DNA of 62,544 nt, the filler included, from Collodictyon triciliatum (lineage: Eukaryota), in the NCBI GenBank assembly GCA_043381765.1. It is 9 parts of 9 records of this genome, joined end to end, with 100 filler letters (N's around TTAATTAATTAA, not from the genome) between each part and the next. Parts side by side here need not be neighbours in the genome. Positions count along the whole stretch, not along the records: positions 7,660 to 15,215 come from JBHJMP010003842.1; 8 more parts are not named here. One strand, given 5' to 3'. The stretch's first letter is position 1; each line of letters starts with the position of its first letter. The notes beneath the pieces were generated by a model that did no database searches, was not told the DNA's origin, and was given only the letters and a program-made list of their open reading frames with translations. A program made the translations under genes and the position numbers. This document shows, one piece after another, positions 1-59,500 of the stretch.

Positions 1-104
1 TTTTTATTCTTTTTATTCTTTTTATTCTTTTTATTCTTTTTATTCTTTTTATTCTTTTTATTCTTTTTATTCTTTTTATTCTTTTTATTCTTTTTATTCT
101 TTAT
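1..104. repeat. (TTTTTATTC)n tandem repeat; reads (AATAAAAAG)n directly after the 3' end of the adjacent non-LTR element
   Basis: 9-mer array seen directly; on the minus strand it follows ...CACAAAATTGA. Confidence 0.9.
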
Positions 105-633
105 TCAATTTTGTGCAGGATGGTGGAGATGTTGGCTTTGGTTCACTAGCCATCGTTTGCATGGATGCCACTTGCCGGCAGGGTGGCGGAGAAGTAGTGC
201 GTAAACAGGAATTGCATCCTGCGGTTTGGCTTGCAGCCTGGGTCTTGTGCTTGCATGAGAGAGGCAAGGCGAGGTTGAATATCTTTCCCAGCCTCTTTCC
301 ACATGTCTCTTCTCACAGGGTCTGATTATTAGAGAACGTGCAGGCGAAGAAAGCTGTTTAGGAAAGAGAGTTGTATGATGTCATCCAGCCTATTACCAGG
401 AATGGGTGGCTGGTTGTTGAGTCTTGCTTTGCGCGAGTATATGCGCACTATCCACATAGTCCATAGCAAATGGCCTCGCGTCACTGCCCAGAATGTTTTT
501 GCATATGGACGCAGCTGTTGCAGAGGCCCAAACATCGCCTGGATTGGACAAAAAGCTGCGGTCGTCTTGAGTGCCAGCCGAAGAATCTCGCCGGCTGTTT
601 TGCGCAGGTTTTGAGCGAAGGGACATTGCATAA
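105..633 (-). mobile_element. 5'-truncated L1/Tx1-like non-LTR retrotransposon, 3' end of ORF2 (copy 1)
   Basis: Encodes QCPFAQNLR...WAVTRGHLLWTMWIVRIYSRK, the helical region after the zf-RVT CCHC motif; clearly homologous to 14589-15215 and 39362-40026. Confidence 0.8.
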
Positions 634-2106
634 GTGAGGTGATAAAAGAGACTATTTTTAAATAAATATAAATTCCAAAAAAAAATCTAAATGGCCGGCC
701 AAGTGGGTCAAAAAGCTCTACATTGTGGAATTCTAGAAACATTTTACTAAAACAGGATAATTCTAAACCCCTAAAGTAAATTTTTGCCGGTTTAGACACA
801 TAGTAGTTAAGCTCTTTTTAGGCTGTGGTCTTGAGGGCCGTCGTTGGGGCACAATGGCGGCACAAAGGACGCACTTTAGCTTAAACTATACGATGGCAGC
901 AAAGACTTACAGGGCAAATGAATATGCCCTTGTCGGTGTGAAATAAAAATGCATAAAAACTAGAGTTCGAAGGTTGGTTGTGGTTGATGTTCGATTCTGT
1001 CATGTCTTCGCAACACTGACAGTGGGGTTCATTCGTCTTTGGCGTCTGCTAGGGTTGCGGAGGTTATTTCCCCTCGAGTCTCGGTGGTTTAAAGGCAAAA
1101 CATATTTTTTGTGGAAAGAACAGATTTTTCGGTTGTTCGGATTTGGTTGTTGAAATTTGGACGTCAACTAATACAATCCGTTTACGTCTGAAACATTAAA
1201 TGAAAGTATCCTGTTTGGACAAAATTCATTGCCTGTGCGGTAAAACTACCCGTAGACATCAACATACAAAAGTTGACGTCCAAAGCATTTTAGTTGTGAG
1301 GCTATATGCAAATCACCACCCTCACACGAAGAGGAAAAAATCGCATTGCACTGTCGCAATCACATCAGACACAGACCATTTGATGCTCACTCCAAGCACG
1401 AATGGTGTGCCTTGTCGTCCTTTCCATTGGCCTCAGCGTTATTTGTTCGTGCGTGCCATTGCTTTGTACCCACAAAACACAAGAGTGCCGCCTGGATGCT
1501 TCTTTATTTGCTTCGTTGAGTTGGGATGTGAGTAATCCTAGGGTTGACAAATAGAATGTTGGCGTTATTTGTTGGCTTCCTGTCCAAGGGCTTTTTTTCT
1601 TGGTGAGCTCTGTTAGAATCCTTCCATTCCATAGTATCATTGTAACTCATCAGCTTCGTTTATACCCGGTCTTGGCCATTACATCTGAGCTGAATGGACT
1701 CAATGCCATTAAGGCTCTTTTCTCCCTCGAATATACCTCTTGCCCGTGCAAAATCGTGTTGTGACTTCAAAGTAGTTTATTAATACACCCCTGCTCACAT
1801 TAGTCGCACGTTTCTTTCTGTTGATGGTTGATTGCTTTGTCGTTTTAACACTGTCTTCGCATTTGATCTCTAAAGCAGATCTCGTTAAGAAAACAACATA
1901 CCTCTTTATTAATCATGGATTTCACATTTTGTTTTCTAGTTGGTATAAAAATTTTGAAAGTATGCAACTCGGTGCTTATGCCAGCCATTCAAATACAACA
2001 TTAAGAACTTGTAATACTTTTTTTAAAATTATAAACATACAGCTCCAATCCTGTCAAAGGAAAAAGTATGTCTTCACAAGGAACTATATCAAACGCTGAA
2101 AGAATT

Positions 2107-7155: not shown

Positions 7156-7429
7156 CTGAAGAGTGTACCAAAGAGAGGGAAAGGTCGATTATTTAGTGTA
7201 AGATGTTATAAACTGTCATCTAGACTAATGGTAGATATGATTGTGACAGGGGTTGTTAATAAATAGCTTCTTTCTTATATAAAAATGTATCTTGGACAAC
7301 TGAATGTGGATCAATTGCAATGTTGTCTAGTAATTGACAGGCTGCAAGAGTGATGATATTCTTGTAAAGAGGAAGATAGCCTGAAGAATCATGATGTGCG
7401 AGGCAATGGTTTTTTTTTGGTTTTTTTTT

Positions 7430-7559
7430 GTTTCTTTGTTTCTTTGTTTCTTTGTTTCTTTGTTTCTTTGTTTCTTTGTTTCTTTGTTTCTTTGTTTCTT
7501 TGTTTCTTTGTTTCTTTGTTTCTTTGTTTCTTTGTTTCTTTGTTTCTTTGTTTCTTTGT
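7430..7559. repeat. (TTTCTTTG)n microsatellite at contig end
   Basis: Seen directly. Confidence 0.95.
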
Positions 7560-7659
7560 NNNNNNNNNNNNNNNNNNNNNNNNNNNNNNNNNNNNNNNNN
7601 NNNTTAATTAATTAANNNNNNNNNNNNNNNNNNNNNNNNNNNNNNNNNNNNNNNNNNNN
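7560..7659. other. Artificial contig linker N44-TTAATTAATTAA-N44 (also 15216-15315, 22871-22970, 30520-30619, 38169-38268, 45768-45867, 53409-53508, 61071-61170)
   Basis: Identical 100-nt spacers with stops in all six frames; intervening pieces are all about 7.5 kb and mostly end in microsatellites. Confidence 0.97.
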
Positions 7660-10600
7660 CAGATTCTTGCTGGTTGGCGGCGTCAGATTGTCTGCTTGGT
7701 GATGGCTCGGACATCTTCCTGTTGATTAAATGCGAATAATATATGGGATTAAGAATTGTTTAATGATATAATTTAATCGTATGCTATTCTCTCTGTTTGA
7801 CCGCCTCGGATGATTCAATACGATTAATCGGCTCGTAAAATTCCTCTCACTTTTGATTTTCATGATAACTCCACTAAAAGGAATATTATTCATACAAATC
7901 TCTCGGATATATATATTTTTGTATAATAGTGAGGGTTAAAACTCCACCCTTGATTACAATCTTATTTTTCTACTATAAAATGATGAATCTTTAACTAAGC
8001 CCATATTTGAAAGTTAAAAAAAAAGTAAAATATTGTGTGAATCATGAAAGATGAAGCCTTTTGAAACAAAGTATTTGCTTTTAAATTATGCATTATATTA
8101 TATTTGAAAAAAATATCTGAGAACAAAGAAATAATTAGTTTAGATCATTCCGACCCAATAGCCAAATAGTACTTGAATGTTCTTGATAAAAAAAAAGTAT
8201 TCTCATTTTATTAAGCAATCATATATACAAAAAAATGCATCTCAAATAATCCAGCAGCCGATGCGAAAGGCCTGTACATTCCGCTACATTCGTACGTATC
8301 CTCCAAGGAACGGCATGAAACTGTAAATGGGACAGCCTTTTAGTGATAACCTTTCCGTAATTTCGAATCGAAGATAATTGGGAGCCACAGTCTGAGCTGA
8401 AAGGAAACAAGCACTTTTTTTTACAAATTATTAATACCAACAAATGAAAATGTCGATTGCAATAACTATGAGACTTGCTCACTCATAATCCCGTAGATTT
8501 CGGAAATGGTTCGACAAATCTGCATATCTGTTGTATAATTCGGATTAAGATCAATATGATATATAATATTTGCCTTGTATGAATGCGGGTCAAGCAAAAT
8601 AAAATGAAAATATAAAGTTGGCATTTTAATTGTTTAACATATGATAAAGAAGAGGTGACTTCATGACCCATAGAACAGTCTAACTTTCAAATCAGGCATA
8701 ATCTGAGAAGATGAATCGTATTGTCAGAGTTTGAAGCATAGGCGGTGGACGCAAATCGACTAGCTCCGTATAGTTAATTTTTCTTAAAAAAAATCATTTT
8801 ATCGTACATAATTCTTGTTGAAATATGAATAATATCTGAGTACAAATAAGAAATACTCACAGAAGAAAGGGCGTGGTCTGTCTGCAAAAATGTGGTTCAG
8901 TCATCAAATTCAGGACTGAAAATATAAGCTTTTAACTCACGTGTTGAGTTGGAGGGGAGGGGTGTGTGGATTATTCGGAAATCTTCAAGCCTACAAATCC
9001 TGCAAAAAAAAGTATGAAGACGAGTAGAATGAGAATTGAAAACCCTTTTCCTTAAATCGCATAAAGAAGCATTATATAAGCATGAGTACAAAGCTCACCA
9101 TATAGTAAACCTTCATATGTTGGTGAAAAGGCCTCGAACGGTGGGTGTATAGAGGCAGTGCCAGTGCGTTGTTTGTATTCTCATATGTCCGGGGGAGGGG
9201 TGGTGTCTGGCGTATCTCTTTTTGGTGCGGGTTCATGACTTCAATAATACCGTTAGCCTGCTCTCTAAACAATTTCCGCTAAAAATTATCAATTGTTTAC
9301 ATAATTAAATATGATTCCTGATACGAATTCGGACGGCGTGACGGAGGCACAAGTTAGGCTTTTTCTGTTCTCTATTGAAATATTTAAACTTTTCATAAAA
9401 TGTATGTGAATATAGAAGCGTCATATGAAGTTGCTTCACTGCCAAGGGAAACTCCTAAAATAGGGAATTGAGACTGTTTTAAGAGAGTTTAGTAAACGAA
9501 CATAAGCATTCATCTTTCTCTGTAAAACAATTAAATTACTAATTGTCTGGTGTAAACGCGGCATTGTAGCGTAGATGCATGTTCTTCTGATCCAAACCAA
9601 CAAATACCACTAAATGATTCTTGAGTCTGCATGATAGGGAAAAATTAATCTGGATACTATGAATTCATTTTAATCTCTTGTGTGAGCCATTAATCATAAA
9701 GTCATATGTACCTTGAATTTGTAGGAGCCGCAAGAAAGTCATTTCCCAGTCTCCTTAGATTTGAAAATCATAGTTTTCTGATTTTTTTGGTATTTTTTGA
9801 ATGATTAAACAAAGACGTACTTACTTCCACACACAACACACACAACACACACAACACACACAACACCCCCACCGTGCGTTCTTAGGCCTTTACTTCAGGC
9901 CATCGGGAAAACTAGGAGCCGCCGATCCACCACCCCTCCCCCTCCTCCAAGTAGTAGATCCAAACAGTTCCCTTTCCCACGGATTTTTGTCTTTTCTCCC
10001 TTCCATTTCAACAGTATCTGAGTTTTTCCATGACTTTAGTTTGAACATTTTCCGATTCAAAATGAATAATCAATGCTTAGTATGGTATATTGAATAAAAT
10101 TATGCGATTTTTCAGCTGGTCTATGAATTAGCCAGGTTGGACCTTTTATCGAAAAAAAGGGCATTGGCACAGAATGGAGTTTGTTTGATTCTCATTTTGT
10201 TATATTTTTGCTAGGCGAATTGAAGCTCAGTGTGTGTATTTTGTGTTCTATTGTTGAGTATCAATCATGTGATCAATTATCTGTCATGAAATTTATTATC
10301 CTGATCATTTTTTTTTTGTTTTTAGAAGTAAAACATACCAAATTTTTTTGTATGATAAATTTATCAGATCCACACTGTTCTACTATGAGAATGCTTGTGA
10401 ATTCTGGCCTAAAGATTTTACTCTATTGTAAAATGTGCGTTGAATATGTTAATTAAGGATTTTTCTATGTATTGAGATAATTCAACATATAATATAAATA
10501 AAAAAATATTCCTTATAAAAATGAAACGAACAAAATTCACAATATGGCTAGTATATGACCTAAAATTGCGAGCGCAAAGACTTCTGTGCGGTGAGATAGG

Positions 10601-11949
10601 GAAAAATGAGCCTATTTGGCCAGTTCGTCAGATGCTACTATAAAAAGCATTTGTTAGATTCCACTGAGAAAGCATTAAAATTACTCTATCCGTAATTTTG
10701 TATATCTGGTGGATATCTGAAATGATTAAACTTTTTTGTTCCTTAATTCGATTCAAAGTGCAGCGCGGTTTTGTCATACAAAGGGACAAGATAAGTGCGC
10801 CTGGTAGAGAGCAAACGCGAGTAGAAGACACCACCTAAGGAAAGGCAAGCAATATCTATAATGTTTATTTTAAAATCATTTCATGTCGTAAAATTCAATC
10901 ATCTTTGTTTTTCGAACATATATTCTTATAATTCATCCATCATCCAATATCATTTGTGCTCATGTGTGAGATAAAGAAAAATTTTGTAATGATAACAAAG
11001 AAGCAGAGTCTACTACTTTCTTAGGATTGTATAATCAAAGGACTCATGTATTAAGCCATGTTAAGTGTATCATACTTAAATACGACTAATTGAAGTGTAG
11101 TTTTGCGACTATCTCCAGACTATTTGGAATGTACAATTGTTTGTTTAAGTTTCCAAAATATTGAGGTTTAATATAGTATAATTCAACTATATATATGTAT
11201 GTTTTTTGGAGTCTATCCAACAAATCAAAAGCATTACTCTTACGAATCCACTATTGCCTTTGTTTCAGAAGTTGTGCTGTATGTAAGCTATTGCTTGTAA
11301 TCGACTGGATACTAAATGTGAATTGATCAATAAAAACGATTTCTAAAATTTAACGAAATCAATATAAAAAAAAGAATGGGGTAGTAAATATCAGAAACAG
11401 TAAATAGAGTAACCGCTTCTTCATCACGCAGATTTCTTCCTCTTCTTCGGTGGTGGGAAATATTCGAGTGAACAACTAATGTTGCGGATTATCTAATTAT
11501 TATTATAATTTAAAAATTACATCATGGCGTCAATAAAAAAGTATTTTTTGATACACCTTACTTGTTAAAAGGTTTCATTATTAAATTTCTGGTGCCAAAT
11601 GATCAGCTTCAGTCGCAGGATGCCGTCATTATAGATGAACTTTTCCTCCCTTTTTTGCCATAGCTCAACCATTTTCTCTATCATATGGACAGTGAGGGTT
11701 ATTAAGGTATTGTTTATAATAGCATGACTAATAAAAATAAATGTTATCATATATTTTGATACGGCCTGCAGTTAATGAAAAAAAACTTAACAATCATAAT
11801 AAAAAGACAATGATAAATAACTCATCTCTTACCCTTACTCATAGCGATTCCCCGAGCACAATAAACGATGAGTTGTTTAGACTGTTATCCTGATAGTATG
11901 TTCCCAGGCACGTTAAATTGACAGCAGCTTCGCTTGATAATAAAATAAA

Positions 11950-14565
11950 AATATAGAGGGAGGAAGGCATATAATTATTATATAGATCAGAATATGTTGT
12001 ATTTTTTCACTACTAAATGAATCCCATAAAAAAAGCCTGGGTTGAGAAGAGATAGGCAAAAAGATCAAAATAACCGAAATGATAGCAAGCACGTGACTAA
12101 ATGAGATGTGCTTAATGTTTGCGTCTTTGGAAGAATCCATCCGAATGAGTGCGATGTGGACAACAGAGTAACCAATGTCTCAGTCGCCATCATGCCCGTG
12201 AAAATTATCCCAAGCTGCGCATGATGGGATTAGAGTCCAATATACACCAAAAATAATATTGAAACTAGAGCTATAGCTATGAAGATAAAAGAATAAAGTG
12301 AACATGGAGATTTGGGTAGCTCAGAAAGTGTGGCTGCGGGGCCAAAAAATCTCTGCTACATGATGCTCCATAACTTGAATAGTCCCAGTTCTTCTTGGCT
12401 TGCAGATTGCTGTATAGATGAGAGCCCCAAAAAATTGGCACATAAAATTAGAAAACTTGAATTTATTAATCATTTAGATACCAAATTGAGTTTTCATGAG
12501 TTATTTGAGTGGTGGGATGATGAGTAATGGTAGAACCAGATATTATACAAGGCAAGGACTAAGCCAAACACATTTTGGTTTGCTGGAAGGAATCGTTTAG
12601 TGTCCTTGCTTGTATCTTTTATAGTTTGTATTATTTCCCAGCATCCGATAGACAACCCCTCTCTCGATAAAGTCTTTTGGCTTTTTGAAGATATCAAACT
12701 CGCTTAGGTTTAGACCTTTGCCTACTTAAAAAAATAAAGCTGTGTTTCCATGTTGGTTTTTTAGTTTGCTTGGCATATGTTGATATTGTTATTTGTGTGG
12801 TAAAAAGAATGAGTGTCCCGCCAATTGGATTCTATGAATAATCTCTGTTCCGCTCTGCTGGTCTTTAGCTTTTGTTCTTGACTGTCTGTGTGCTTTCGAC
12901 GATAGGGCCGGTAGAAATGCGTTTGTGAGTTGATCTGCTATACACTGACGAGCTGGTTTTCTTGTTATGGAATGAATAATATTTTACATTTTATGAGTAC
13001 AATAACATTAATAAATGTTTTTTAATAATAAATTTTAGTTACAAATATAAATTCACATCAAAAAAAATTACAAAATCAACCCAAAATGATGGATGGTGCG
13101 AATGTGGAAAAAATGGGGCTAGTGTCTTAGAGAACTGAATAAGCGAGTTTGTGATTGTCTCCAAAGTAAACATAGCTTGGGATATATATTGCTATCTAAC
13201 TCCGCCACTCAATCCATCTCTTCTATGACATTAGGAACTCTTCATCGATTCTCCATTTTTTTTATTTGTAACGGCCTTTGAACAGAGGGAAATATTACAA
13301 CTGCAAATAATAAAATGCGAACCTATGGAAAGAATATTAACAATAACATTCCCATAGCAAAGCACAAAAGTACCGGATGATCGCATTGTATTAGTTGAAG
13401 AGAAAAGCACATTGCGCGCGACAAATGGCCAACATATCGACCTTATCCAATCGGATATCTGATGGAAGGGATACAGTCTGTGATCTAAAAAACCAGTGAA
13501 TCAAAGCACTTTAATGCATTTCACAGTTTATTGTTGCTCTTGAAAGCACTGCAGGCACATATCAATGTGGAAATCTAATGTCTAGGTTACTGGCTTGTTA
13601 ACCTCTTCCTTCTTTTCTTTCTTTTTTCATTAGTTTATTGATGAAACATGTCGCTTAAGATGAATACCATTTCTTTTTAATGTATTTTTTTTGAAAAGGC
13701 CGATATTTCATGTGGGTTTAAGTGACGCGTACCACCTTTCAAGTGTCTCTATTGACTCATTTTGGTGGCTTACAAAACCTGACACAAAGCAAGGGTTTAT
13801 GCCATAGTCTTACATTTTTTTTAACTTTTCAAAAGAAATATATGATATTATTGGATATTCTGTAAAAATAATAACTTTAGATCACTGCTAGAAATCTCTC
13901 TTTTTTTGTAAGTTATATATTCTTAACTACTATCGTTAAGGTCAATGTGGCTCATTGATATTTTTCGTTTATATTTTGGTAAAGGAAAGTGTTTAATTGT
14001 TATTTTACAGCCCGCCCTAGTTGTTGCGCCTTGGTTGAGAGCACGAACGCGTTTTGGATTCATGTGCAGGTCGGTTTGACTAAGAGACTAAATTCATAAC
14101 TAATCTGAATATATCTATTTTGGGTCGAGTTTCATACAATCCTCAAAAGCTGTAACTACCAAAGGCCCTGACTTGGATTCAATCATAGGCCTAACTTCCG
14201 GCAAAGTCCAAGGGACGCAGCTGATTTAAATCAGACGATGAATGCGTAACCAGTAGGCACAACATGTGAAAGTCGCTAATTTTATTTTAAAAAAAAAAGC
14301 GGATTCAATTTGGATGTAGTGCTGTATTTGGTTTTTTGTATTGTCATTTGATTGAATGCCTTTTGCCCGTGATGAATATATGTATCTGAACTGTGCTGAC
14401 TCACAACGACCCATTTCCTGAGTAAACTCGTTCCACCATTTGATGCAATGCTCTGTTTAAGTACATCGTTCAAAGAATCTATCGCATTCGTATAGTTTTT
14501 TATCCACGAAGACGAAGCCGAAGTCGAAGCCATTATGCCAAGCTAACAAACCCATCTTACTGGGC
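11950..14565 (-). pseudogene. Degenerate intron-containing gene of unknown family, copy A
   Basis: Colinear with 40043-43100(+); exon-like blocks YECDRFFERC, QHYIQIE, GFVSHQNES, HQISDWIRSICWPFVA, FHGHDGD*DIGYS with in-frame stops; synonymous differences versus copy B; shared ttttAG acceptors and GTACTT donor. Confidence 0.65.
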
Positions 14566-14588
14566 CATTCTTTGCTGTTTTATTTTGT

Positions 14589-15215
14589 TTATTTTTCTTT
14601 GCGTGTGGAGATAGAGTTCCTGTCTACAAGGTGCCAGCCTTCTTTCGCACTAATGCTGCTTGATTGCTGCGTGGCGGAGAAGTAGTTGGTAATCAGGAAT
14701 TGCATCCTGCGGTTTGGCCTGTAGCCTGCGTCTTGTGCTTGCATGAGGGATACAAGGCAAGGTTGAATCTCTTTCTCAGCTTCTTTCCACATGTCTCTTC
14801 TCACGGGGTCTGAGTAGTAGAGAACGTGCATGTGGCGAAGGAAGCTGTTGAGGAAAGAGATTCGTATGATGTCATTCAGTCTATTATCAGAAATGGGTGG
14901 CTGGTTGTTGAGTCTAGCTTTGCGTGAGTATATGCGTGCTATCCACATAGTCCATAGCAAATGGCCTTGCATCACTGCCCAGAGTGTTTTTGCATCTGGA
15001 TGCAGTTGTCGAAGAGGCCCAAATATCGCCTGGATTGGGCCAATAGCTGCAGCCGTCTTGAGTGTCAGTCGGAAAATCTCGCCGGCTGTTTCGCGCAGAT
15101 TTTTGAGAGAAGGGACATTGTACAAATGTGTGCTCAATGGATTCATCACCGTTGCTGCAAAGCGTGCATTGTTGGGAGACTTTGCCAGCTTTTGCCGCGC
15201 GTGTGCCTATCCATA
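14589..15215 (-). mobile_element. L1/Tx1-like non-LTR retrotransposon ORF2 3' end (copy 2, cut by contig end)
   Basis: WIGTRAAKAGKVSQQCTLCSNGDESIEHTFVQC is a CCHC zf-RVT motif; a 1-nt frameshift follows, then LLWTMWIARIYSRK. Confidence 0.85.
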
Positions 15216-38011: not shown

Positions 38012-38746
38012 CTTTTATTTGCAGGGATTCAGCAGAGACAGCGAAGAATTTCATCACCAATAGAAAAAAGAAAAAGAAAAAGAAAAAGAAAAAGAAAAAG
38101 AAAAAGAAAAAGAAAAAGAAAAAGAAAAAGAAAAAGAAAAAGAAAAAGAAAAAAAGAAAGAAAAGAAANNNNNNNNNNNNNNNNNNNNNNNNNNNNNNNN
38201 NNNNNNNNNNNNTTAATTAATTAANNNNNNNNNNNNNNNNNNNNNNNNNNNNNNNNNNNNNNNNNNNNTTTTTTCCAAAAAAAAATAATATCCAAGCCCT
38301 AGACAGAGTAGACAGGTCATATTTGTCAAGCATTATATCCGAATAGTTTTTCACACGAGCATGATTTTTGATGGGCGAAAAGGAATCATAATCCTTATCT
38401 AATGATGTTTTTTTTTTTTTTTTTTTTTTTTTTTGGTAGAGCCTTCCTCATAATCCTAGTTTTTTTTTTTTGAAAAGCGGTAACCAGCCACCAACTCGAC
38501 TTTAACCTCATGCTTCGCCAACTTTGAATCGATTAAAGGAAAAAAAAATTATGCTTCGCCGAATATCGAATAACTAATTTATAATTATGTAGAAATGTGT
38601 TGGTTATAATTCATTTTTCTTCTTTTATCCGCTGGTGGAGTTCATATGCGAGACAACTGGTTGGATGCTGTCTAAATTTCATCTGCATTATGTTTAACCG
38701 CTATTTATCGATAATGTTGAAGATTATTTACCTTTGCCCGCGCCTG

Positions 38747-40026
38747 ATGGAAAACACAAGCCGAGACGGGGAGATCAACACAAGCCGCGACCCGTCGAAG
38801 GTTTTGAAAGTTGCAGCCAGTTCTTCTGGTTCTAACGCTGGTGCGGAAAAACCATGGGTTGCACGTAAGTCTAGGAAGTCCCGTGCAAGGAAGCCGACAG
38901 CAAGTCTGTGTGAGCGGACAGTATTTTTGCACGGGGTCGAGCAAGTCATTCACAACAAGAACAAGGCACGGAGACTCACAGATGCGCTCGCCTCCTTCTT
39001 GAAAGCGAACAAACTTTGGGAAGAGTCCATCCGATTGCGCTTAACGGACAGCAAAGGCCTTTGCCTAATTGCCTCCCGCACTGCAGAAAACGCCCGAAAG
39101 CTTCTGGAGCTGAAGCAGGTAAGTTTGATCGATATCATGAACAGCTTTAGTAGAAGTAAACCAACAGAGACCTCGGTGATGCTCTACCAACTACCGCTGG
39201 ACGTGTGGCCGCAACTCCTTCGTGAGGAGTTGAGACCGTTCAGACCGACTCGCGTAGAGATCAAGACAGGACAAAGGCTTCTTCACAGACACGGCCGTGG
39301 TGGAGCTTCTTTGTCACAAGAACCAGCTCCCTGCAAAGTTTACAGTCATGGGTTAAAAGACCTTCCAAATCACCGCTCTCTAATGCTTAATATCACCAAT
39401 AGGGAGCTATGGATAGGCACACGCGCGGCAAAAACTGGCAAAGTCTCCCAACGATGCATATGCGCAGCAACAGTGACGAATCTACTGAGCACACATTTGT
39501 GCAATGTCCCTTCGCTCAAAACCTGCGCGAAACAGCCGGTGAGATTCTTCGACTGACACTCAAGACGGCTGCAGCTGTTGGCCCAATCCAGGCGATATTT
39601 GGGCCTCTGCAACAGCTGCGTCCAGATGCAAAAACATTCTGGGCAGTGACGCGAGGCCATTTGCTATGGACTACGTGGATAGCACGCATATACTCACGCG
39701 AAGCAAGACTCAACAACCAGCCACCCATTCCTGATAACAGGCTTAATGACATCACACAAATCTCTTTCCTCAATAGCTTTATTCGCCAACTGCACGTTCT
39801 CTACCACTCAAACACTGTGAGAAGAGACATGTGGAAAGAGGCTGAGAAAGAGATTAAACCTCGCCTTGTCTCTCTCATGCAAGCACAAGACCCAGGCTAC
39901 AAGACAAAGCGCAGGATGCAATTCCTGATGGTCGTCTACTTCTCCGCCACCCGGCCACCAAGCAGCATACATGCAAGCATTGGCTGGTAGCTTAGAGACA
40001 GGAACTCCATTCTCGCACAAAATTGA
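38747..40026 (+). mobile_element. Internally deleted L1/Tx1-like element: ORF1 fragment fused to ORF2 C terminus (copy 3)
   Basis: 38747-~39360 is ORF1-like (SVMLYQLPLDV...EELRPF; after a frameshift GFFTDTAVVELL...LPAKFTVMG); from ~39362 the zf-RVT region (ELWIGTRA...DESTEHTFVQC); no endonuclease or RT motifs. Confidence 0.8.
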
Positions 40027-40042
40027 AAGGAAGAATAAAAAA

Positions 40043-43000
40043 GCCCAATAAGATGGGTTTATTATATGAGTAAAATGACCTTGACTTGGACTTATTGGAA
40101 AAATAAATACACGAATGCGATAGATTTTTTGAACGATGCACTGAAACAGAGCTTTGCAACAAGCACTGAAATGAGGCTACTCAGGAAATCATGTATTGAG
40201 TCAGTACAGTTCAGATGCATATATTAATCACGGGCAAACGACATTCAACCAAAAAACAATACGAAAATTATAATGCAGCATTATATACAAATTGAATGCT
40301 CTTTTTTTTTTTTTTTTTTGGAATGGGACTAGATAATTTCGCATGTTGTGTTTGCTGATTACACATTTATTATCTGACTTCAATTTTTTTATTCTAATAA
40401 TCTCAGCTGTTGAGCCCGTCTCAACAATCTTTCATTCAACCATCAGGAAAGTAGTTCCAAAGCAGGTGAGGATGAGTGGGAGATTGAAAAAAGAAAAAAA
40501 AGGGATAAAAATATGAGAAATAGGGAAAGAGTAGTCCTTGAGGTTTATTTGACTTCAATTAGTTGCATCGCTTCGACTTTGCCGGAAATTTGGGCTCATG
40601 AATTCAGGTAAAGGCATAGGTAGTTGCAGCTCTTAAGAGTCGTAAGTAACCTCGACCTTCATAGATGTATTTTGGTGAGTCATAAATCCAGTTTCCATAC
40701 CAAACTGTCCTGCACCCAAATTCAAAACGCGTTATTGCAATCAGCCAAGGCGAAACAACTATGACAGGCTGTAGAATTATAATAAAACTATTTCTTTAAT
40801 ATAAATATAAAGTAAAAGAAACATCAATAAGTCACATCAACCTTAAAGGTAGTCAAGAATCAATAACTTCCATTTAAAAAGTTTTCTAACAGTAATCTAC
40901 TAGATTATGGTTTCTTTTCTACATAATTTTTTTATTCTTCCTTTCAAATTTGTGCAGGACCGCGGGGATGCTTGGCTAACTCTTCTTTTCTACAGAATAT
41001 TTAATAGGAAATCATATATACCTTTTAAAAATAAAAATGCAATTATAAAATATAACATAAAACTTTGTTTTGAGTCAAGGTTTTGCAAGCCACCAAAATA
41101 GGTCGGAAAAGACAATTGTAGGTAGCCCGTGTCGCTTAAGCCCACATCAAATATCAGCCTTTCTTTAAAAAAACTCACATGTACCTATAAAAAATAGTAT
41201 ATTTATCCTTAAGCGATGTGTTCGATCAAAAAGCAATTGAAAAGTAAGAAAGAAGGAAAAGAAGGTAGAAGTCAATAAGCTATTAAACTAGACTTTGGAT
41301 TGCAACATCGATGAGTACCCGCAGCACACACAAGAGCAACAATAAGCAGTGAAAAGTATCAAGGAGTTCTGATTGAGTTGTTTTTTTTTTAGACCGTGGG
41401 CTGCATCCCTTTCAACCAGATATCTGAATTGATAAGGTCGATAACTGGGCCATTTGTTGCGCACAAACCTGCATTTGTCTCATGACAACAATATTTGGAG
41501 ATAATCATGTACTTTCATATTTAATAATGAGAATTTGAATTTAAATACGTGGGTATTCATAGAATCGTCCATTGGTACACATTTTATTATGCGCAGTTGT
41601 ATTATTTACATTCTGTTCTGTGAGTGGTTATAAATGGTGGTGAAGAATCGACCAAGAGTTAATTCATTTCCGGAATAAATTATGTACAATCCATAAAAAT
41701 TGTACATGTTAAGACATAATCAATGAATCTTTCTTCATTTCGCGGCAAAACCAGTCAAACCCACGTTGCATCTCACAAAAAATGTCACTTTTTAAATTCA
41801 ATCATATGATGAAAGTAAGAGCATGGAGAGCTAATTTTAGACATCGTATCCAATATCGGCTATTTGCTATCAAGACTATGGCTAACCCGCTTATTCAGAT
41901 AGCCAGGACATTAGCTACATTTTTTCATTTTGCCCCGTTCCTCATTTTTCCTTTGATTTCTACCTTGGGTTTCCTGTGCGGCTTAATTGTGTTGTAAGAA
42001 CGAAGATTTTCTAATATTTTTGTCTCCGAATATAAGATAATTACCAATTAACAAATGAAAAATATGTTCCGAGCTTTGAAAAAAATCAAGCGCATTAGTA
42101 TATGAAGCCTATTTCACCACCAGCACATTTCTATCAACACAATCACACAATCATTCAAGCACCAAAGCCGAAGACCAGCACAACACAACAAAGCCATTAA
42201 TTCCCTTTCGTGAGGACCCTCATTTATTTTTACCCCAAAAAACAAACAATATCAACATGTGGCCAAGCAAACTAAAATACTTGACGCGAAAAATATATCA
42301 TTTTATTTAACAAAGCGAAGGTTTTTTCCTATGCAAAACTAATAACTCATTCCAAAAGCCAAAAGACTTGGTCGAGAGTGGGGTAGTCTATCAAATGCTG
42401 GCAAATAATAATAGGAAAAATAAATAATCTAAAACATAATGGAGGGTTCCATTCAATAATTTTTTTGAGTATCTCTGTTCTTGCCATATGAAATACGTGG
42501 ATCCTGTCGTAACCTGCCAATCCACAGTTCAAAACCCTCATGAAGCTCAAATATATGTCTAAATGACTATAAACTAAGCTATTTATATGTCCTGTGGCTG
42601 TTGTTGGAGCTGTTGATTTTGCATTTACCGAAAATCAGGAGTGCCGGGATCGAACGGGCCACAATGCCTTCCTGTTGCATCACACTATCGGCCGCGCATC
42701 TACGCTATCTTAACTTCTCATCAAACAGGTCGTTCTGTTAGTCTCATAAATGAACCCGGCTGAGGCTGATATGTCTTTATTTTAAATTATTAATCATTTT
42801 CATTGGATTCTAATCTCATCGTACAGTTTATGCCGCTTTCCAAGGGCGAGGTGGCGATTGGGATTCTGGTTCCTCTTCTGCTCGCACCACAGTTTCTTCG
42901 ATAGATTTTTCATAGAAAAATACTATAACATTTATTTTAGTCAAATGCTTGCTCTCAGGATGGTTTTTAATATCTATCTGCCTTGGTCTTCTGAACTCGG

Positions 43001-44632: not shown

Positions 44633-45767
44633 ATGCGGTTGAATCCGAAGACTTTAGCATCCATGTTGCTGTTGGGTTCGTTGTTCTATTAAAATTATAT
44701 AATTTAAAAATTATTGACTACAAAACATATATAATTATATAATAACCATTCACAGGAGTGATATTCCACTGCCATTTGTGTCTTGTTGAGGGGCAAGGAT
44801 ACCTGATTCGCACATTAACTGGTCATACAAGTCCTGTTCGCACTGTTGCTACTTCTCCTGATGGCTCAAAAATTCTTTCTGGAAGCGAAGATAATACAGT
44901 CAAAATTTGGAATCCGTCTGATGGAACTTTGATTCGAACGCTGACTGGTCACACAAGTTATATTCGTAGTGTTGCTACTACTCCTGATGGCTCAAAAGTT
45001 TTTTCTGGAGGTCACGACAATAAAATACAGATATGGAATCTTTCTGATGGAACTTTGATTCGCACATTGACTGGTCACACAAGTCCTATTTTCGGTGTTG
45101 CTGTTACTCCAGATGGCACAAAAATAATTTCCGGAAGTGGTGATGCAACAGTCAAAATCTGGAATCTTTCTGATGGAGCTTTGATTCGCACATTGACTGG
45201 CCATACTCGTGTTAACAGTGTTGCTGCTACTCCTGATGGCTCAAAAATTGTTTCTGGAAGTAGTGATAAAACAATCAAAATTTGGATTCTTTCTGATGGA
45301 GCTTTGATTCGCACATTGACTGGTCATACTGGTAGTGTCAACTGTGTTGCTGTTACTCCTGATGGCTCAAAAATTATTTCTGGAAGTGGTGAAGGTACAA
45401 TCAAAATTTGGATTCTTTCTGATGGAGCTTTGATTCGCACATTGACTGGTCATTCTGATGGTGTTAACAGTGTTGTTGTTACTCCTGATGGTTCGAAAAT
45501 TGTTTCTGGATGTGGAGATCAAACAGTCAAAATTTGGAATCTTTCTGATGGAGCTTTGATTCACACATTGACTGGTCATACAAATGGTGTTGAAGGTGTT
45601 GCTGTTACTCCTGATGGTTCAAGAATTGTTTCTGGAAGTAATGATATAACTATTAAAATATGGGGAGGTATTCCTGAGATGGCTTCTCAGTCCCGTTCAA
45701 AGACTAAATCCAAATCTCTCTCAAAGTCCCGCTCTAAGTCCCGCTCCAGATCCCAATCCCAATCCCA
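44633..45767 (+). CDS. Signal-peptide-bearing 7-repeat WD40 protein with S/K/R-rich tail (3' partial)
   Basis: Exon 1 MRLNPKTLASMLLL-G, 80-nt GT-AG intron 44676-44755, then VIFHCHLCLVEG-QGYLIRTLTGH; seven ~42-aa GH...SGS.D.T.KIW repeats. Confidence 0.85.
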
Positions 45768-45867
45768 NNNNNNNNNNNNNNNNNNNNNNNNNNNNNNNNN
45801 NNNNNNNNNNNTTAATTAATTAANNNNNNNNNNNNNNNNNNNNNNNNNNNNNNNNNNNNNNNNNNNN

Positions 45868-53508: not shown

Positions 53509-56500
53509 CACGCTAAGCTCGATAATCCTTGTGGCAGTGACATCAGCTGATTTTGAGAGACATCGAAGCGAATAAGACCATTCAAGCATGATATTTCTGA
53601 AGGTAGTGATGACAGCTGATTTTGAGAGACATCGAGGCGAGTAAGACCATTCAAGCATGATATTTCTGAAGGTAGTGATGACAGCCGATTTTGAAAGACA
53701 TCAAGGCGAATGAGACCATTCAGGTGTGATATTTCTGAAGGTAGTGATGACAACTGATTTTGAGAGACATCAAGGCGAGTTAAAACCGTCAGGTGTGATA
53801 TTTGAGCTGGTACTGATGATATCTGTAAATCATAGTAAATGAGCAGAATGGAGGTATGAATGAGGTTGATTCAAATGCAAGTATGAAATTAGTAAATGAA
53901 AGAAAAAAAAACACAAGCGGAACACCTTATTTTTTGATAAGTCCAGATATAATAGGCTTGTAAGAGTGAAACATGGCTCCGGGAAAGATGCAAGCTGTAA
54001 AAAGGAGGTAAGTTTCAGTTCAAATAAATATTAAATGAAAATAATGGTTCACTTAGATGTTGTGAAATATTACTTTGTTTGAATGGACGTAGAGTTTCTT
54101 TAGCCCAACTAAATGCTTAAGCCAATTAGGAATTTGAGAGAGCTTCATATCACCCATCCACAGCGAAGTTGCGTGTTGGATTCCATGATTGTAAGGGGTG
54201 TACTGCACATTCATATATTGAATTTCTTCCAATTCTTGAAGGGTACTGGAGCTTAATGGATGTTTAGGGGACTCAGTCTCATTTGGATGTAGGTGGTCGT
54301 TTATGAATTGGGATACAAACGAGAGTTCTTGCTCAGAAAGCGAATGGGTCGTATGGACATCGGGCTGGTCAAGCTTGGATATTGTGCTTCCATCAAGCTT
54401 CAAGGCTTTCACTTTCCCAAGCAGTCTTTCCGACAATTCGTCTTTCTTTTTCTGCAGATGAGTCACCAATTGGGAATAAAATAATTCCTTAACTTTCTTT
54501 AGAGATTTTGAGCTGCCACCTCCAACACTTTGATTTGAAAATTCTACAAATGCACAAATGTCATCTGACGATATGTGATACATATCAACCATCGTGCTTT
54601 CATCTAGTTTGTCTTGAATTTCTTGGAATCTTCCCCAGCTTTGATTTGAAATTGTATCGCTTAGTTTTAAAAAGCCATGTTCTCGAAGCCACTCCACAAA
54701 TTCGCCCTGGTACATATCAGCCAAAATAGCATATTTAATTGGAAGCAGTTCGTTAATTATCTTTTGAGAAAGCTTCTGCTCATTTGATTTCAAGTTATCC
54801 AAGTATACACAAACTCGATTCAGAGAAGGTCGGAGCTTGTAGTTTTGCCTCCAGCACGCTCTGATAAGATGGTTGAGCTCACGAGCGGTTTCTTTCGGTA
54901 TTTCAAGCCGTAATCCCCTGATAATGAAGCTCTGTGGTCGTGCCTCGTTCTGGAAAGGCTCGACTCCAGAAAACATGTACCAAACGAGCATTCCCAAAGC
55001 ATACACATTACTTGATTCTCCTCGGTGGCCAATGTTTACTTCATCATCACCATACATTTCTGGGTTATCATTATAAAACGGTTCGCAGGAAACTTCATGG
55101 ATTTCCGGTGCTTGCCAATTAGCCGTTCCGCCTTGCTTGTTCTCACCAAATCTCGTCGGTAAGTTTGACCCAACTTTTTCAACTTCACGAAGGCTCACTA
55201 TCCCAAAATCCACAATTTTTACTGTTTCACCCACAATCATAACGTTATCGGCCTTCAAATCTTCGTGATACAGGTGTTTGGAATGCATGAAAATGAGACC
55301 CTTGCAAAGTTGCTTTGTGTAAGAAATTATTTGAGATAATGTTGGCTTAACCTTTTTCTTCTCCAACATCGCTTTCAACGAAATACCTGCATTCTCCATA
55401 ATCATGAAAAAGTCGTCATCTTTACGATACACACCAAATAATTTGACTATATTTTCACATTCTTTGCATTCATGCAGATACTTGCTTTCAGAAATGAGCG
55501 ATTGAATCACCTGGCTGAGGGTCTGCTCCTTGCTCTTCTGGATGGTTTGGATTTTCACCACAGCACTTTTTCCTTCGAGCATTGTTGTATAAACTCGCCC
55601 ATACGCCCCCTTTGCGAGATAACCTGACAGTTCTATTTTTTCATGAATCCATTGGTCTATTAATTCTCGGTCGATTGAATCCAGCTCAAGAATTGCTTCA
55701 GCAGATTGAGGCGTCTTTTTCGTTTTTGCTCTCACCACAGAGGAGAATCTCTTTGAAATCCCTTTTTTAAAAAAAAAATATTTATAAGCTTTCGATAACA
55801 TATAATCAAATTATCATTAAGTTGAAAATTAACATTTTTTGAATATATTTATTATAATAAACCTTGTTCCAGATAGACACGCCCTTGCTTTACTGCACTC
55901 GCATCCAATTGATGGCTCTTAGTACACACCTCCAATTCTGATTCATCTATCTTTGCCGATGTTTGAATGTATCCGTCTAATCCATGACGTTGGCATTCAG
56001 GGCATTCAAACTGGTATGCTTCCACAAAATTTGGTCGAATTGATGATATTTGTTTGATGAAAGTTGAAAGAATGTCAAAAATCCTGACGAATCTATCACC
56101 TTCATGAACCTCATTTTCGTATTTTCTAATCTTGACTGAAATGCTCTTCTGGTGGATTTGATACAGAATAATCAAACCGTCTCCAGGAAGCAGTTGAATT
56201 TCATCTGTTCCTGTTTTGTAGGAAGCATTCAGATGTATGAACGCTACATCTCTGAAAAACTGGTCGTCATATTGAACTCCAGATTGTGCCTCTTTTGTCA
56301 AACGAAGCGCTTGCATGACGACGTTACTTTTGTCAGAGAGCTGTACCTCACCATTGGTTATTATTTTTACAGAGGTTTCAACGATGCAGTTTGACTCTGC
56401 TTTTTCATTCCATAATGCTTTGAGATTTAGGCAATCTTCCATCAATGAGGGAAAGGCGATGCATTCTCTGTTGAATTGAATCCCAAGGCCGAAATGGTCA

Positions 56501-59500
56501 AAGATTCGAAGAATTGTATTGAACACATGTTCGTCTAGTTCCGCATTCAGTTCGTGTTTTATTTGGTCTTTTAGCTTGCCCAACAAAATGATGCCACTTG
56601 TGTCCTTCCCGATGCCTTTGAAGCTAAAGACACAGCGGAATATGTTGATGAGAAATAGAGGGTCTAAAAATATAATGTCTTTGATATATTCAAGTGATGA
56701 ATACCAAACGACCGAGCCAAGGTCGTGGAGGAATTTGAGAGCACTTTCGCATCCATTTCTGTCCATACCCAGCTGCTTCTCAGCAAAATCGTAAGTATCT
56801 TGAATTCGTTCGTACTTTGATATTTGGCCTTTTGAATCCAGATAATCTTTCAGCCCGATATATGTTTTTGGAACGTCCTTGTTCATGTTATCAAGCCTCA
56901 TCATTCCTTTGTATATCTCTCCCTTCAAATATGAGATTTTTTTCCCATTTTTACTGCTTACTCTTAACTCTGTATTGATGAAGATGTGGCGAGCCTTTTC
57001 ATCCAGTTTCTGCTCATTTACTTTTTTAATTCGTTCAATTTCTTCCATCATTTCTTGCTTACAGACCCGGATTTGACAATCTTTGCGAGTCCCGGCAATT
57101 ATGATTTTTGAGCCAGGTGCAAACTCATCAAGCATTTTGACCCAGCGGCTGAGATTGTTCTTCTCCTTGCCTTGGTCGAGTCTGTACAGGATTAAAACGA
57201 GGGCGCCTGATGACAAAAAGAATGGGTGTGTCACTTGGAACTCGTCTTGTCCTCCAAAGTCCCAGATTCGCATGGATATCTTTGTCTTGAATAATCCACC
57301 CATCATCGACTCATCGATATCAACGTGGGCAATACCATCAGTTGCAATCCTTGGCTGGTCTGTCATATTCTTAAAAAACATAGATTTTTGTGTGATTGAT
57401 TTGATAAGGGTTGTCTTCCCTGCCTCCCCCTCGCCCAATAGTAGGAGTCTTCCTTGGGTCCATTTTACAACACCATTCATGGAGTTTGCCAGGAAATCAA
57501 AGATAGCCTCAGACCCATTTCTGATGACGTTCTCTGGGATATTTTTGATATGATTTCCTTGGACATTCAGTCCACCTCGAAGGCCTTTAAGCTTGGCGAT
57601 GAATGGAGGTATAACTCCGATCTGTTTGTGTAATTAATGTTTTCTTTAATTTTTTTATTTTTGAGTAATTCGGCCATATAACTTAATTGAAAAATCCCAT
57701 GGAGGATTTAAATAGAAAAGTGGTTGACCTTGTTGTTGGATATGTCCAGTTTTTGAAGATTTGCAAGGTTTGCTATGTCTTCTGGGATGTGTGAAATCTG
57801 GATTTGTACGATAGGTGAGGTTTAAATGGCTATTTGATTACTATAGTTTGCACTATTGTTCATTCTTTAGTTGTTTTTTTTTTACATGTCTGTTGTGTAG
57901 CTTTATAACCTGATTTCCAGAAATATTGAGGGCCATGATAAGTGTTATTGTACAGATGACTGTGGGGAATGCGTCGAACTGAAATCCCCACATATTTTTC
58001 ATTTAATTAAGTAGAATGTATGCTAGGCTGTTTTAATTGTGTTTTTTAAATATATTCAATATATATATGTATGTGTGTACTTTATTGTCGCAGATGCTTA
58101 GATTTGTGAGATTCGTCAAGTTTGACATGTTTGCTGGCAGTGTTGATATCTATTTATTTATTAATTAAATAATTAAAGAGGGTTTAATTTCAATCATGTT
58201 ACTAATAAAATGTATTAATGAAGTATAGGAATGTCTTTTAAAGAAAAAGAAACAGAAAAAGTTGCCTGGTTGGTAGATATGTCAAGTCCGTTGGGTTTGA
58301 TGGGCAGCATGAACAGCTCATTTGGTAAATCTATGATATTTCGTCCAGATAGACTTATTCCATCGCTATTTGCGAGATTGATTGAGTCTAAAATTTGTTG
58401 GATGTGCGATGGAAAAGCATTTTGCTTCGTGTCCAGCTTCTTGAGTTTTGTCAACGCTCGCAAATCAGGCAAAGTGGATATCTGTTAATTGAAGGGAGGG
58501 GGTTTCCCTTAATATCGACGGCTGGTGCATGAATCCACAAGCAAATCACAGGCATATCGTTTGGTGTATGATTCAATCTCTTAAATTATTCGGTTATAAT
58601 CGAGCTTAAAGTATTCGTACCTTGTTGTTGCTGATGCTGAGATTTGTGAGATTAGTCAAGTTCGACATGTTTGCTGGCAGGGTGGATATCTATTTATTTA
58701 TTGATTAATTAAAGAGGGTTTAATTGCAATCATGTTACTAATAAATTGTATTAATTAAGTATAGGAATGTCTCTTTAAAAAAGATTTAATCACCTGGTTG
58801 GTGGATATATCGAGTGATGCGACGAGCGTCAATGTGCGGATGGCTGCAGGCAATGCATCGAACTTTGGTGTGCATGTATTTGTCAAAACACTCTCATTTA
58901 TGATAGACTGGGATGTATGTTTATATATTCTTGTTAACTCAAGTATTCGTACCTTGCTGTTGCTGATGTTGAGATTTGTGAGATTCGTCAAGTTCGACAT
59001 GTTTGCAGGCAGGATGGAGAGACCCATTCCGTAAAAGTTAAGTGATTGGAAGCCGACTTGTCTCGCATTTGGAATCCAGCCTTCTATCATCATATCTTCC
59101 TCCTTTTTTTTTATTTCTCAGTTTCTTTAATTTGCGAACAGTCTCATTTTTATTGATGTATTTATGTTTTCTGATTAAAAAAAAAAGAAGGAAGGAAAAT
59201 ACTCACAGGGGTTTCATATAGCTGAAGTTTTTTGAGGGCATCTGCAACGCTCATCGTGCCTGATGAAGGTTTTTCCGTGTTTGTATAGCACGGAAGGATT
59301 GAAATGCCTCGTGGTGCATTTTTTGTGTTTGTCTGTCCCCTCCTCTCGATGATGAGCGTCTTTAGGTTTGTGAGTGCCGTGATTTGGGGCGGGAGCTCTT
59401 CAATCTGAGTATATTGCCATTAGATGTCAGTATTTTCTTAATTCAGAATGTATGCATTCTGGACAAACGTAGTGCTGTTTGCACGGTCATCTTCAACATT

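Follow-up and report, generated by a model that had tools for sequence, protein, structure and literature searches.

Why do two contigs of the protist Collodictyon triciliatum carry similar L1-like fragments at the same position of flanks that are far more diverged than the fragments themselves? The stretch analyzed here (the window, 62,544 nt) joins nine short contigs of assembly GCA_043381765.1, which comprises 75 Mb in 14,576 contigs. An earlier note on this DNA had taken the arrangement for a candidate target-specific retrotransposon that inserted independently into a dispersed repeat, with conversion of an old insertion as its alternative. The question turns on three fragments, copies A, B, and C, and on the DNA downstream of the first two, arm D.

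14665..15215, minus strand: body of copy A, the 3' part of an L1-like ORF2 from the zinc-knuckle region onward, cut by the contig end
14575..14664, minus strand: old-type tail of copy A (about 75 nt) and A-rich stretch; the ORF ends with EGWHLVDRNSISTRKEK and a stop
14548-14565, minus strand: shared 18-nt motif GCCCARTAAGATGGGTTT on contig C3842, copy A side
7660..14565, minus strand: arm D in copy A, a decayed noncoding segment that is itself a mosaic
39357..39965, plus strand: body of copy B, a young-type L1-like ORF2 3' part
39966..40042, plus strand: tail of copy B, a mosaic in which an old-type tract gives way to the final ~30 nt of the young family and its A-run
40043-40060, plus strand: shared 18-nt motif GCCCARTAAGATGGGTTT on contig C3847, copy B side
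40043..43000, plus strand: motif and copy B version of arm D; this D lineage has diverged deeply (26%) from the main group
91..636, minus strand: copy C, a 3' fragment of the young type whose tail is a tandem (GAATAAAAA)n array

Long copies elsewhere in the genome define the family. One of them (L192) gave Pfam matches to PF03372, PF14529, and PF00078 above cut-off, that is, an APE endonuclease and a reverse transcriptase (RT); another (L130) holds a 565-codon frame ending in a zf-RVT CCHC knuckle (E 4.7e-08), a domain matched weakly by copy B (E 0.026). L186 bridges the two, overlapping L130 at 92.8% on the amino acid level and L192 at 94.5% on the nucleotide level. Among longer proteins, the best named relatives were plant L1-like proteins and horse L1 ORF2; in the PDB, it was human ORF2p. 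None of 29 matches in a length-limited protein search was a protein named Tx1. Like human and horse L1, the family has an upstream ORF1, an APE endonuclease, an RT, a C-terminal CCHC knuckle, an A-tail, 5' truncation, and 10- to 18-nt duplications at unrelated sites. Its ORF2p is only ~26% identical to that of mammals, and, unlike mammalian L1, it has almost no 3' UTR and very many stubs of 30 to 70 nt; its long copies, again unlike L1, mostly lack paired duplications. Best matches and domains make it a probable L1-clade (APE-type) LINE, one without target-sequence specificity.

The family is abundant. Its young 3' end has at least 662 exact 20-mer matches genome-wide (control, 0), and the tail matched exactly in 23 of 72 sampled free 3' ends, which implies about 2,000 family copies, the sample consisting of best matches to A, B, or C rather than random draws. 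The 3' flanks of free copies are unrelated to one another. Copy C has an unrelated 5' flank and no D within its contig; its (GAATAAAAA)n array (window 1-110) reaches the contig end. Within D of copy B, the same LINE has made an ordinary insertion at another spot.

40923..40983, minus strand: young stub of this LINE within the arm D of copy B, short and flanked by a 12-nt duplication at 40912-40923 and 40983-40994

A second LINE family, ~70% alike in the RT (L185, L187-L189, and L193), has a 3' end in the flank of copy A, at ~10735-10835 on the minus strand.

The observations from which the earlier note started were largely borne out. The identical motif lies at both places on two separate contigs, where ~2e-6 occurrences per window would be expected by chance, and the colinear flank that had been claimed to follow it does so, with similarity fading outwards: over 14565-11950, A and B mismatch at 250/983 (25%), 313/934 (34%), and then 251/628 (40%) positions, plus indels. 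The discordance between element and flank likewise holds in a full alignment, the bodies differing at 59 of 549 positions (10.7%) versus 25 to 40% in the flank. Its size had been overstated, since the quoted block, with its 8 mismatches, comes close to the best available: among 120-nt blocks, the range is 7 to 17 mismatches and the median 13. Synonymous sites, described as mostly unchanged, proved otherwise: four-fold sites differ at 7 of 55 (12.7%) and are kept no better than the rest. The two bodies, 6.3% (A) and 5.0% (B) from the family majority, are no closer to each other than family copies generally (free-free mean, 8.8%), and the body of A is missing among the 40 best matches of the body of B.

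The divergence between the copies steps up ~75 nt inside the element, not at the element-flank junction. In the last ~85 nt before the motif, A and B differ at 30 of 86 sites, and 35 diagnostic columns separate the tail of A from that of the young family. D-linked copies generally have this old-type tail of ~75 nt, and their bodies share almost no private changes. Across five old-tail lineages (10 pairs, with ~55 tail sites per pair), divergence is 0.279 in the tail, 0.271 in the flank, and 0.155 in the body; in bins of 80 nt, the bodies of A, B, L073, L225, L226, L229, and L232 show 0 to 8 mismatches and the old-type tails 20 to 39. Equal divergence of element and flank, which had been named as evidence against independent insertion, was thus found for the tail and not for the body, which is less diverged. 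Independent insertion predicts a step at the junction, so a step inside the element counts against it and indicates that the junction is old and inherited and the body new. Rather than marking a target site, the motif opens the duplicated arm D downstream. Two bodies appear less converted (L228, 16.7%; L227, 11.8%). The tail of L227 is 6/55 from the main tail while its flank is ~21% away, which suggests that old tails may also have been exchanged. The old-type tail is almost confined to D, with exceptions on C2395/C12922/C13996, C13551, and C10592; considered as the tail of the second LINE family, it gave no match.

Arm D belongs to a much-duplicated host segment. All 30 loci nearest to copy A run on into D, and most of these that have upstream DNA also have a common AT-rich arm, U, and one 5' junction. 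The U-element-D unit spans at least 12 kb, and the main group also shares at least 4.7 kb upstream. D extends at least 7 kb to contig ends, with subgroups diverging at different places; its identity switches from ~90% to ~70% between subgroups, without a LINE at the switch, and arm D of copy A is common to C1872 and C3276 up to the contig end, at 85 to 87%. In the flank tree, 30 rows form a main clade, and nine old rows, among them copy B, fall into eight long lineages. In contrast, the body tree, from which eight odd or old-tail free copies were excluded, is a star: 7 of 80 inner branches are well supported, and eight old rows are scattered, needing seven label changes. Main-group bodies cluster more than under shuffled labels (14 versus 25.7 changes) and thus are not wholly randomized. 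Mean divergence, computed without L163 (a near-copy of L232, 95.9%), is 0.124 in the body and 0.300 in the flank for old rows.

These data bear on a plain segmental duplication in which purifying selection or base composition slowed the element part. For the recent main group such a duplication suffices, body and flank diverging alike (0.097 versus 0.118). The LINE fragments are, however, dead, with frameshifts; four-fold sites differ by only 12.7% between A and B; and the bodies are as similar to unlinked young copies as to one another. Moreover, the synonymous share of changes is 0.38 in old copies and 0.39 in free copies, so selection does not explain the young bodies. We consider this account highly improbable, and for the old lineages segmental duplication alone is already refuted by the synonymous-site count and the body tree.

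A target-specific element would make a different prediction: like Tx1 in Tx1D, either the family as a whole or its old-tail subfamily would insert independently into one particular site of a dispersed repeat. It would account for a 3' end at the same spot in nine flank lineages, for the different 5' ends among old copies, and for an old-type tail found almost only at D. Yet the flank search proposed in the earlier note for empty sites and target-site duplications yielded neither. None of 50 flank-proximal places, found by two flank searches and one tail search, is empty (at least ~50 of 57 first-look candidates were covered); the element lies directly upstream in 49, and the remaining one (C11632) starts ~80 nt inside D. 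Arm U gave 35 matches, 33 of them reaching the junction: 16 continue into D, 8 into a young tail with another flank, and 2 into a broken element, 6 stop at a contig end, and 1 (C9485) turns from U into unrelated DNA a few bases short of the junction. Not one of the 33 runs from U into D without the element. In 12 tested D-linked copies without U, no duplication was found at the D junction, the longest match of the flank to its own 3' side being 4 to 9 nt and mostly A-rich; arm exchange could have erased the halves. The upstream arms of old D copies are unrelated to each other and to U, and the U-linked group has a single 5' junction, which together with a tail as diverged as the flank also weighs against independent insertions.

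Genome-wide counts point the same way. The ~50 D-linked loci, against at least 662 exact tail matches, account for at most ~7% of the family, less than PMC4494074 requires of a target-specific element, namely that a single type make up >20% of its flanks. Of the 40 best body matches, 2 are on known D-linked contigs. When downstream flanks were tabulated from the element 3' end, as had been suggested, most copies had unrelated flanks, and the motif was present at 0 of 72 free family 3' ends. As in the account of Tx1 and Tx1-Mar in PMC4494074, the element 3' ends lie at one position of a dispersed repeat; unlike those elements as described there, the share is ~7% or less, with no empty sites, shared upstream half, or duplication, and the junction is inherited. 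The headline of independent, target-specific insertions thus did not stand: most copies have unrelated flanks, no empty site appeared, and the tail is as diverged as the flank. We regard this explanation as improbable and already largely refuted.

One observation retains part of the claim. A young tail is present at 5 of 45 D-linked loci (B, L225, L226, L229, and L231), against ~0.025 expected by chance in 45 x 40 nt, a further point in favor of site preference. Young 3' ends did come to the site repeatedly, then, as independent arrival would have it, but they lie in register over the old tail: the five young tails stand in its place, meet D at A-runs that differ between loci, and are not accompanied by a duplication.

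The different truncation points of the old D copies also fit a 3' transduction, in which D would be read-through of a source LINE, element and D being reverse transcribed together and the bodies later freshened by recombination (compare PMC4859970). The point of 5' truncation varies among the old copies, and the DNA upstream of them is unrelated; distal D is somewhat more frequent than proximal D (90 versus 57 first-look candidates), and C2122 has distal D without the proximal part. No common 3' end or A-tail was seen, however, in a D of at least 7 kb to contig ends, the DNA shared by the main group extends upstream as well, and the young bodies would still require recombination, given synonymous shares of 0.38 (old) and 0.39 (free). 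Transduction is a minor rival, which we judge unlikely.

Several features point to exchange between copies. The loci L225 and L073 (C3498 and C2346) have flanks 3% apart and bodies 4% apart with shared private changes, but tails of different type, young and old being exchanged in register across ~100 nt; 560 nt further on, the same pair differs by an ordinary 44-nt stub with a duplication and an empty site, which serves as an insertion control. Mosaic tails occur in B, L226, L231, and L224, the switches falling within 30 to 60 nt. Further, the same 5' junction is found with D and with an unrelated 3' flank in L066/L127 (90.8%) and L210/L224 (85.8%). In L129, L253, and L254, U is 19 to 27% diverged and the bodies 8.5 to 9.4% at the same 5' junction; a divergent U with young bodies at one 5' junction is not producible by target priming at the 3' end. 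Two loci (L247 and L250, on C3766 and C6488, 89% alike) join U and the element to the flank of a second, inverted stub inside D, a structure that looks like an inversion between the two fragments. The alternative offered earlier, conversion of an old insertion, is thus supported by a tail that aged with its flank, by mosaic tails, and by arm swaps.

This pattern resembles Alu non-allelic gene conversion, in which, according to PMC8230782, an older element at a fixed locus is replaced wholly or partly by a younger subfamily. That source reports two-element hybrids and 40 AluS-to-AluY cases, and treats conversion as rare, with 98 clear cases among 68,097 insertions, shown with orthologues. Here, too, the element type at one locus is replaced (L225 versus L073) or hybrid (the tails of B, L226, L231, and L224). 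Unlike the Alu cases in that account, most old flank lineages are touched, the element is a LINE fragment in a protist, and the copies compared are paralogues of one assembly.

Taken together, the data make it probable that one old LINE insertion in a much-duplicated segment had its body later refreshed by recombination with young copies. The 3' end of an older variant would have come to adjoin segment D long ago, as a tail that aged with its flank indicates. The junction would then have been copied with D in an old wave, represented by eight lineages with flanks 22 to 44% apart, and in a recent wave of ~35 to 40 copies, ~12% apart, most of them fused to U and at least 12 kb long. Because the fragment stayed homologous to the ~2,000 younger copies, its body could later be replaced by non-allelic recombination. 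The pattern suggests that this proceeded through arm-swapping crossovers and through shorter conversion tracts that stopped near the diverged tail. At the five loci with a young tail, the swap in register most likely came from reverse transcription that started at the old A-rich tail, its product then perhaps annealing to the resident body; the same tail pattern would result from a DNA donor sharing microhomology at the A-run. Replacement guided by a reverse transcript has precedent. On this view, copies A and B would represent two lineages of D whose bodies were refreshed independently, which is why the bodies look young and the flanks old.

It follows that finding a young element between old flanks does not prove that it inserted independently and that target specificity can be faked; what decides is where divergence steps up and what the upstream flank shows. 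In this genome, element divergence cannot be used to date insertions. For 3'-end replacement, L225 and L073 provide a case that can be tested directly.

Target-site duplications suggest that exchange may reach well beyond D. Among 40 free copies (L105-L233; nine copies of the second stub inside D were excluded), duplications flank all 12 copies shorter than 120 nt versus 3 of 28 longer ones, with 3% under shuffled pairing, and a wider scan raised the count for long copies to 6 at most. A search of 44 x 67 flank pairs for a reciprocal partner with matching duplication halves gave none beyond chance-level scores of 11 to 12; 44 of 110 long copies are cut on the 5' side by a contig or locus end. 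The loss of duplications in long copies reflects either genome-wide flank exchange or assembly mis-joins, and if real it would imply an unusually high rate of ectopic recombination in this lineage. We put forward only tentatively, as a doubtful possibility, that dispersed-LINE recombination in vivo is near-universal, most copies longer than ~150 nt being flank exchanged, and that transcripts of young LINEs, steered to old copies by homology, overwrite their 3' ends in register. If this were true, there would be a recurrent integration hotspot ~200-fold over chance without a sequence-specific endonuclease, a target preference by homology.

Mis-assembly could mimic some of these signs, were a short-read assembler to have mis-threaded repeats longer than the read length, swapping arms and importing young bodies. 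The assembly is fragmented (14,576 contigs), contigs often end inside the element, duplication loss begins above ~120 to 150 nt, a threshold resembling a read length, and just one of eight near-full-length copies of another retroposon, element E (see below), has a clear duplication. Such mis-threading would, however, need long identical words, which a resident body 25% diverged should not supply; mosaic tails switch within 30 to 60 nt; L225 and L073 share private body changes and yet differ in the tail; and recombinant forms recur in separate copies ~90% alike (L247/L250). Some of the arm swaps and some of the duplication loss may stem from mis-joins. Young bodies on flanks 25% apart and the short tail switches are hard to account for in this way, and as the source of the whole pattern mis-joins have little likelihood.

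Copy B is in addition a chimera on its upstream side. Reading downstream, an arm X is followed by the 5'-most 625 nt of element E, which meet the LINE fragment at a microhomology.

38269..38734, plus strand: arm X, upstream of copy B; L058 (C3284) has a paralogue
38735..39359, plus strand: part of element E (625 nt from its 5' end); a short microhomology marks the join with the LINE fragment

The paralogue of X in L058 lacks the insertion and continues into non-D sequence. Element E is an ORF1-only poly(A) retroposon of ~1.77 kb (L107:2432-4199, L108) with 451 first-look candidates, ~28-nt tandem units at its 5' end, a common 3' end in at least seven copies, no Pfam domain, and, in L108, a 16-nt duplication. 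Its ORF1 resembles that of the LINE in one 85-nt match (85%) to one decayed copy, and a comparison with L257, upstream of a family endonuclease, gave 54% over 37 amino acids. E is thereby similar to HAL1 (half-L1), described from mammals in PMC5753468, in being non-autonomous, with ORF1 only and an A-tail, and, going by the single 85-nt match, perhaps in having an ORF1 related to that of an autonomous L1-like partner in the same genome; unlike HAL1 as presented there, its host is a protist. Further chimeras of an E 5' end and a LINE 3' end, with other join points, were seen at L115:1638-3015 and 7346-8369. In contigs of four sequencing runs that cover E and the LINE body, the chimeric junction was unbridged and the usual continuations appeared at 39357/39359, a result without bearing on this assembly.

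In the duplicated segment itself, neither an RNA gene nor a known protein was recognized. Rfam gave no match in four loci and no tRNA was found in six, which argues against an RNA gene as the target for insertion. A scan of 49 of 60 listed ORFs found no transposase or helicase, giving just LRR matches of a neighboring gene and three sub-threshold matches, and no reading frame is conserved between old D lineages; a coding host repeat is rejected on these two grounds. None of six telomeric repeat patterns was present in the loci scanned. The U-element-D unit does carry relics of other repeats, among them one arm of an old inverted repeat.

13976..14197, minus strand: arm of an old inverted repeat of ~250 nt, the pair ~70% alike and 2.0 to 2.4 kb apart in other D copies

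Pairs were found at L064:5001-7474, L228:1139-3554, and L225:709-3309, and further single arms in U. The pair is a possible DNA-transposon relic, perhaps Mutator-like. In the flank of copy B, a 165-nt A-tailed insertion of another family (window 40386-40549, minus strand) has an 11-nt duplication at 40375-40385 and 40550-40560.

Several genes lie near these repeats. A WD40-type repeat gene is located downstream of D in copy B (44746-45819) and at L225:7123-8269, ~78% alike, and may mark the far end of the old duplicated segment. Members of a large LRR receptor-like gene family occur near the repeats in L110, L112, L118, L124, L061, and L228, one such gene being broken at the 5' junction of L228, and L183 (C929) has a long open gag-pol-like frame of an LTR retrotransposon. 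In the window itself, 54053-57633 on the minus strand holds what we take, by eye, to be a Roco-like gene (LRR, GTPase, COR, and kinase), with a paralogue in L114.
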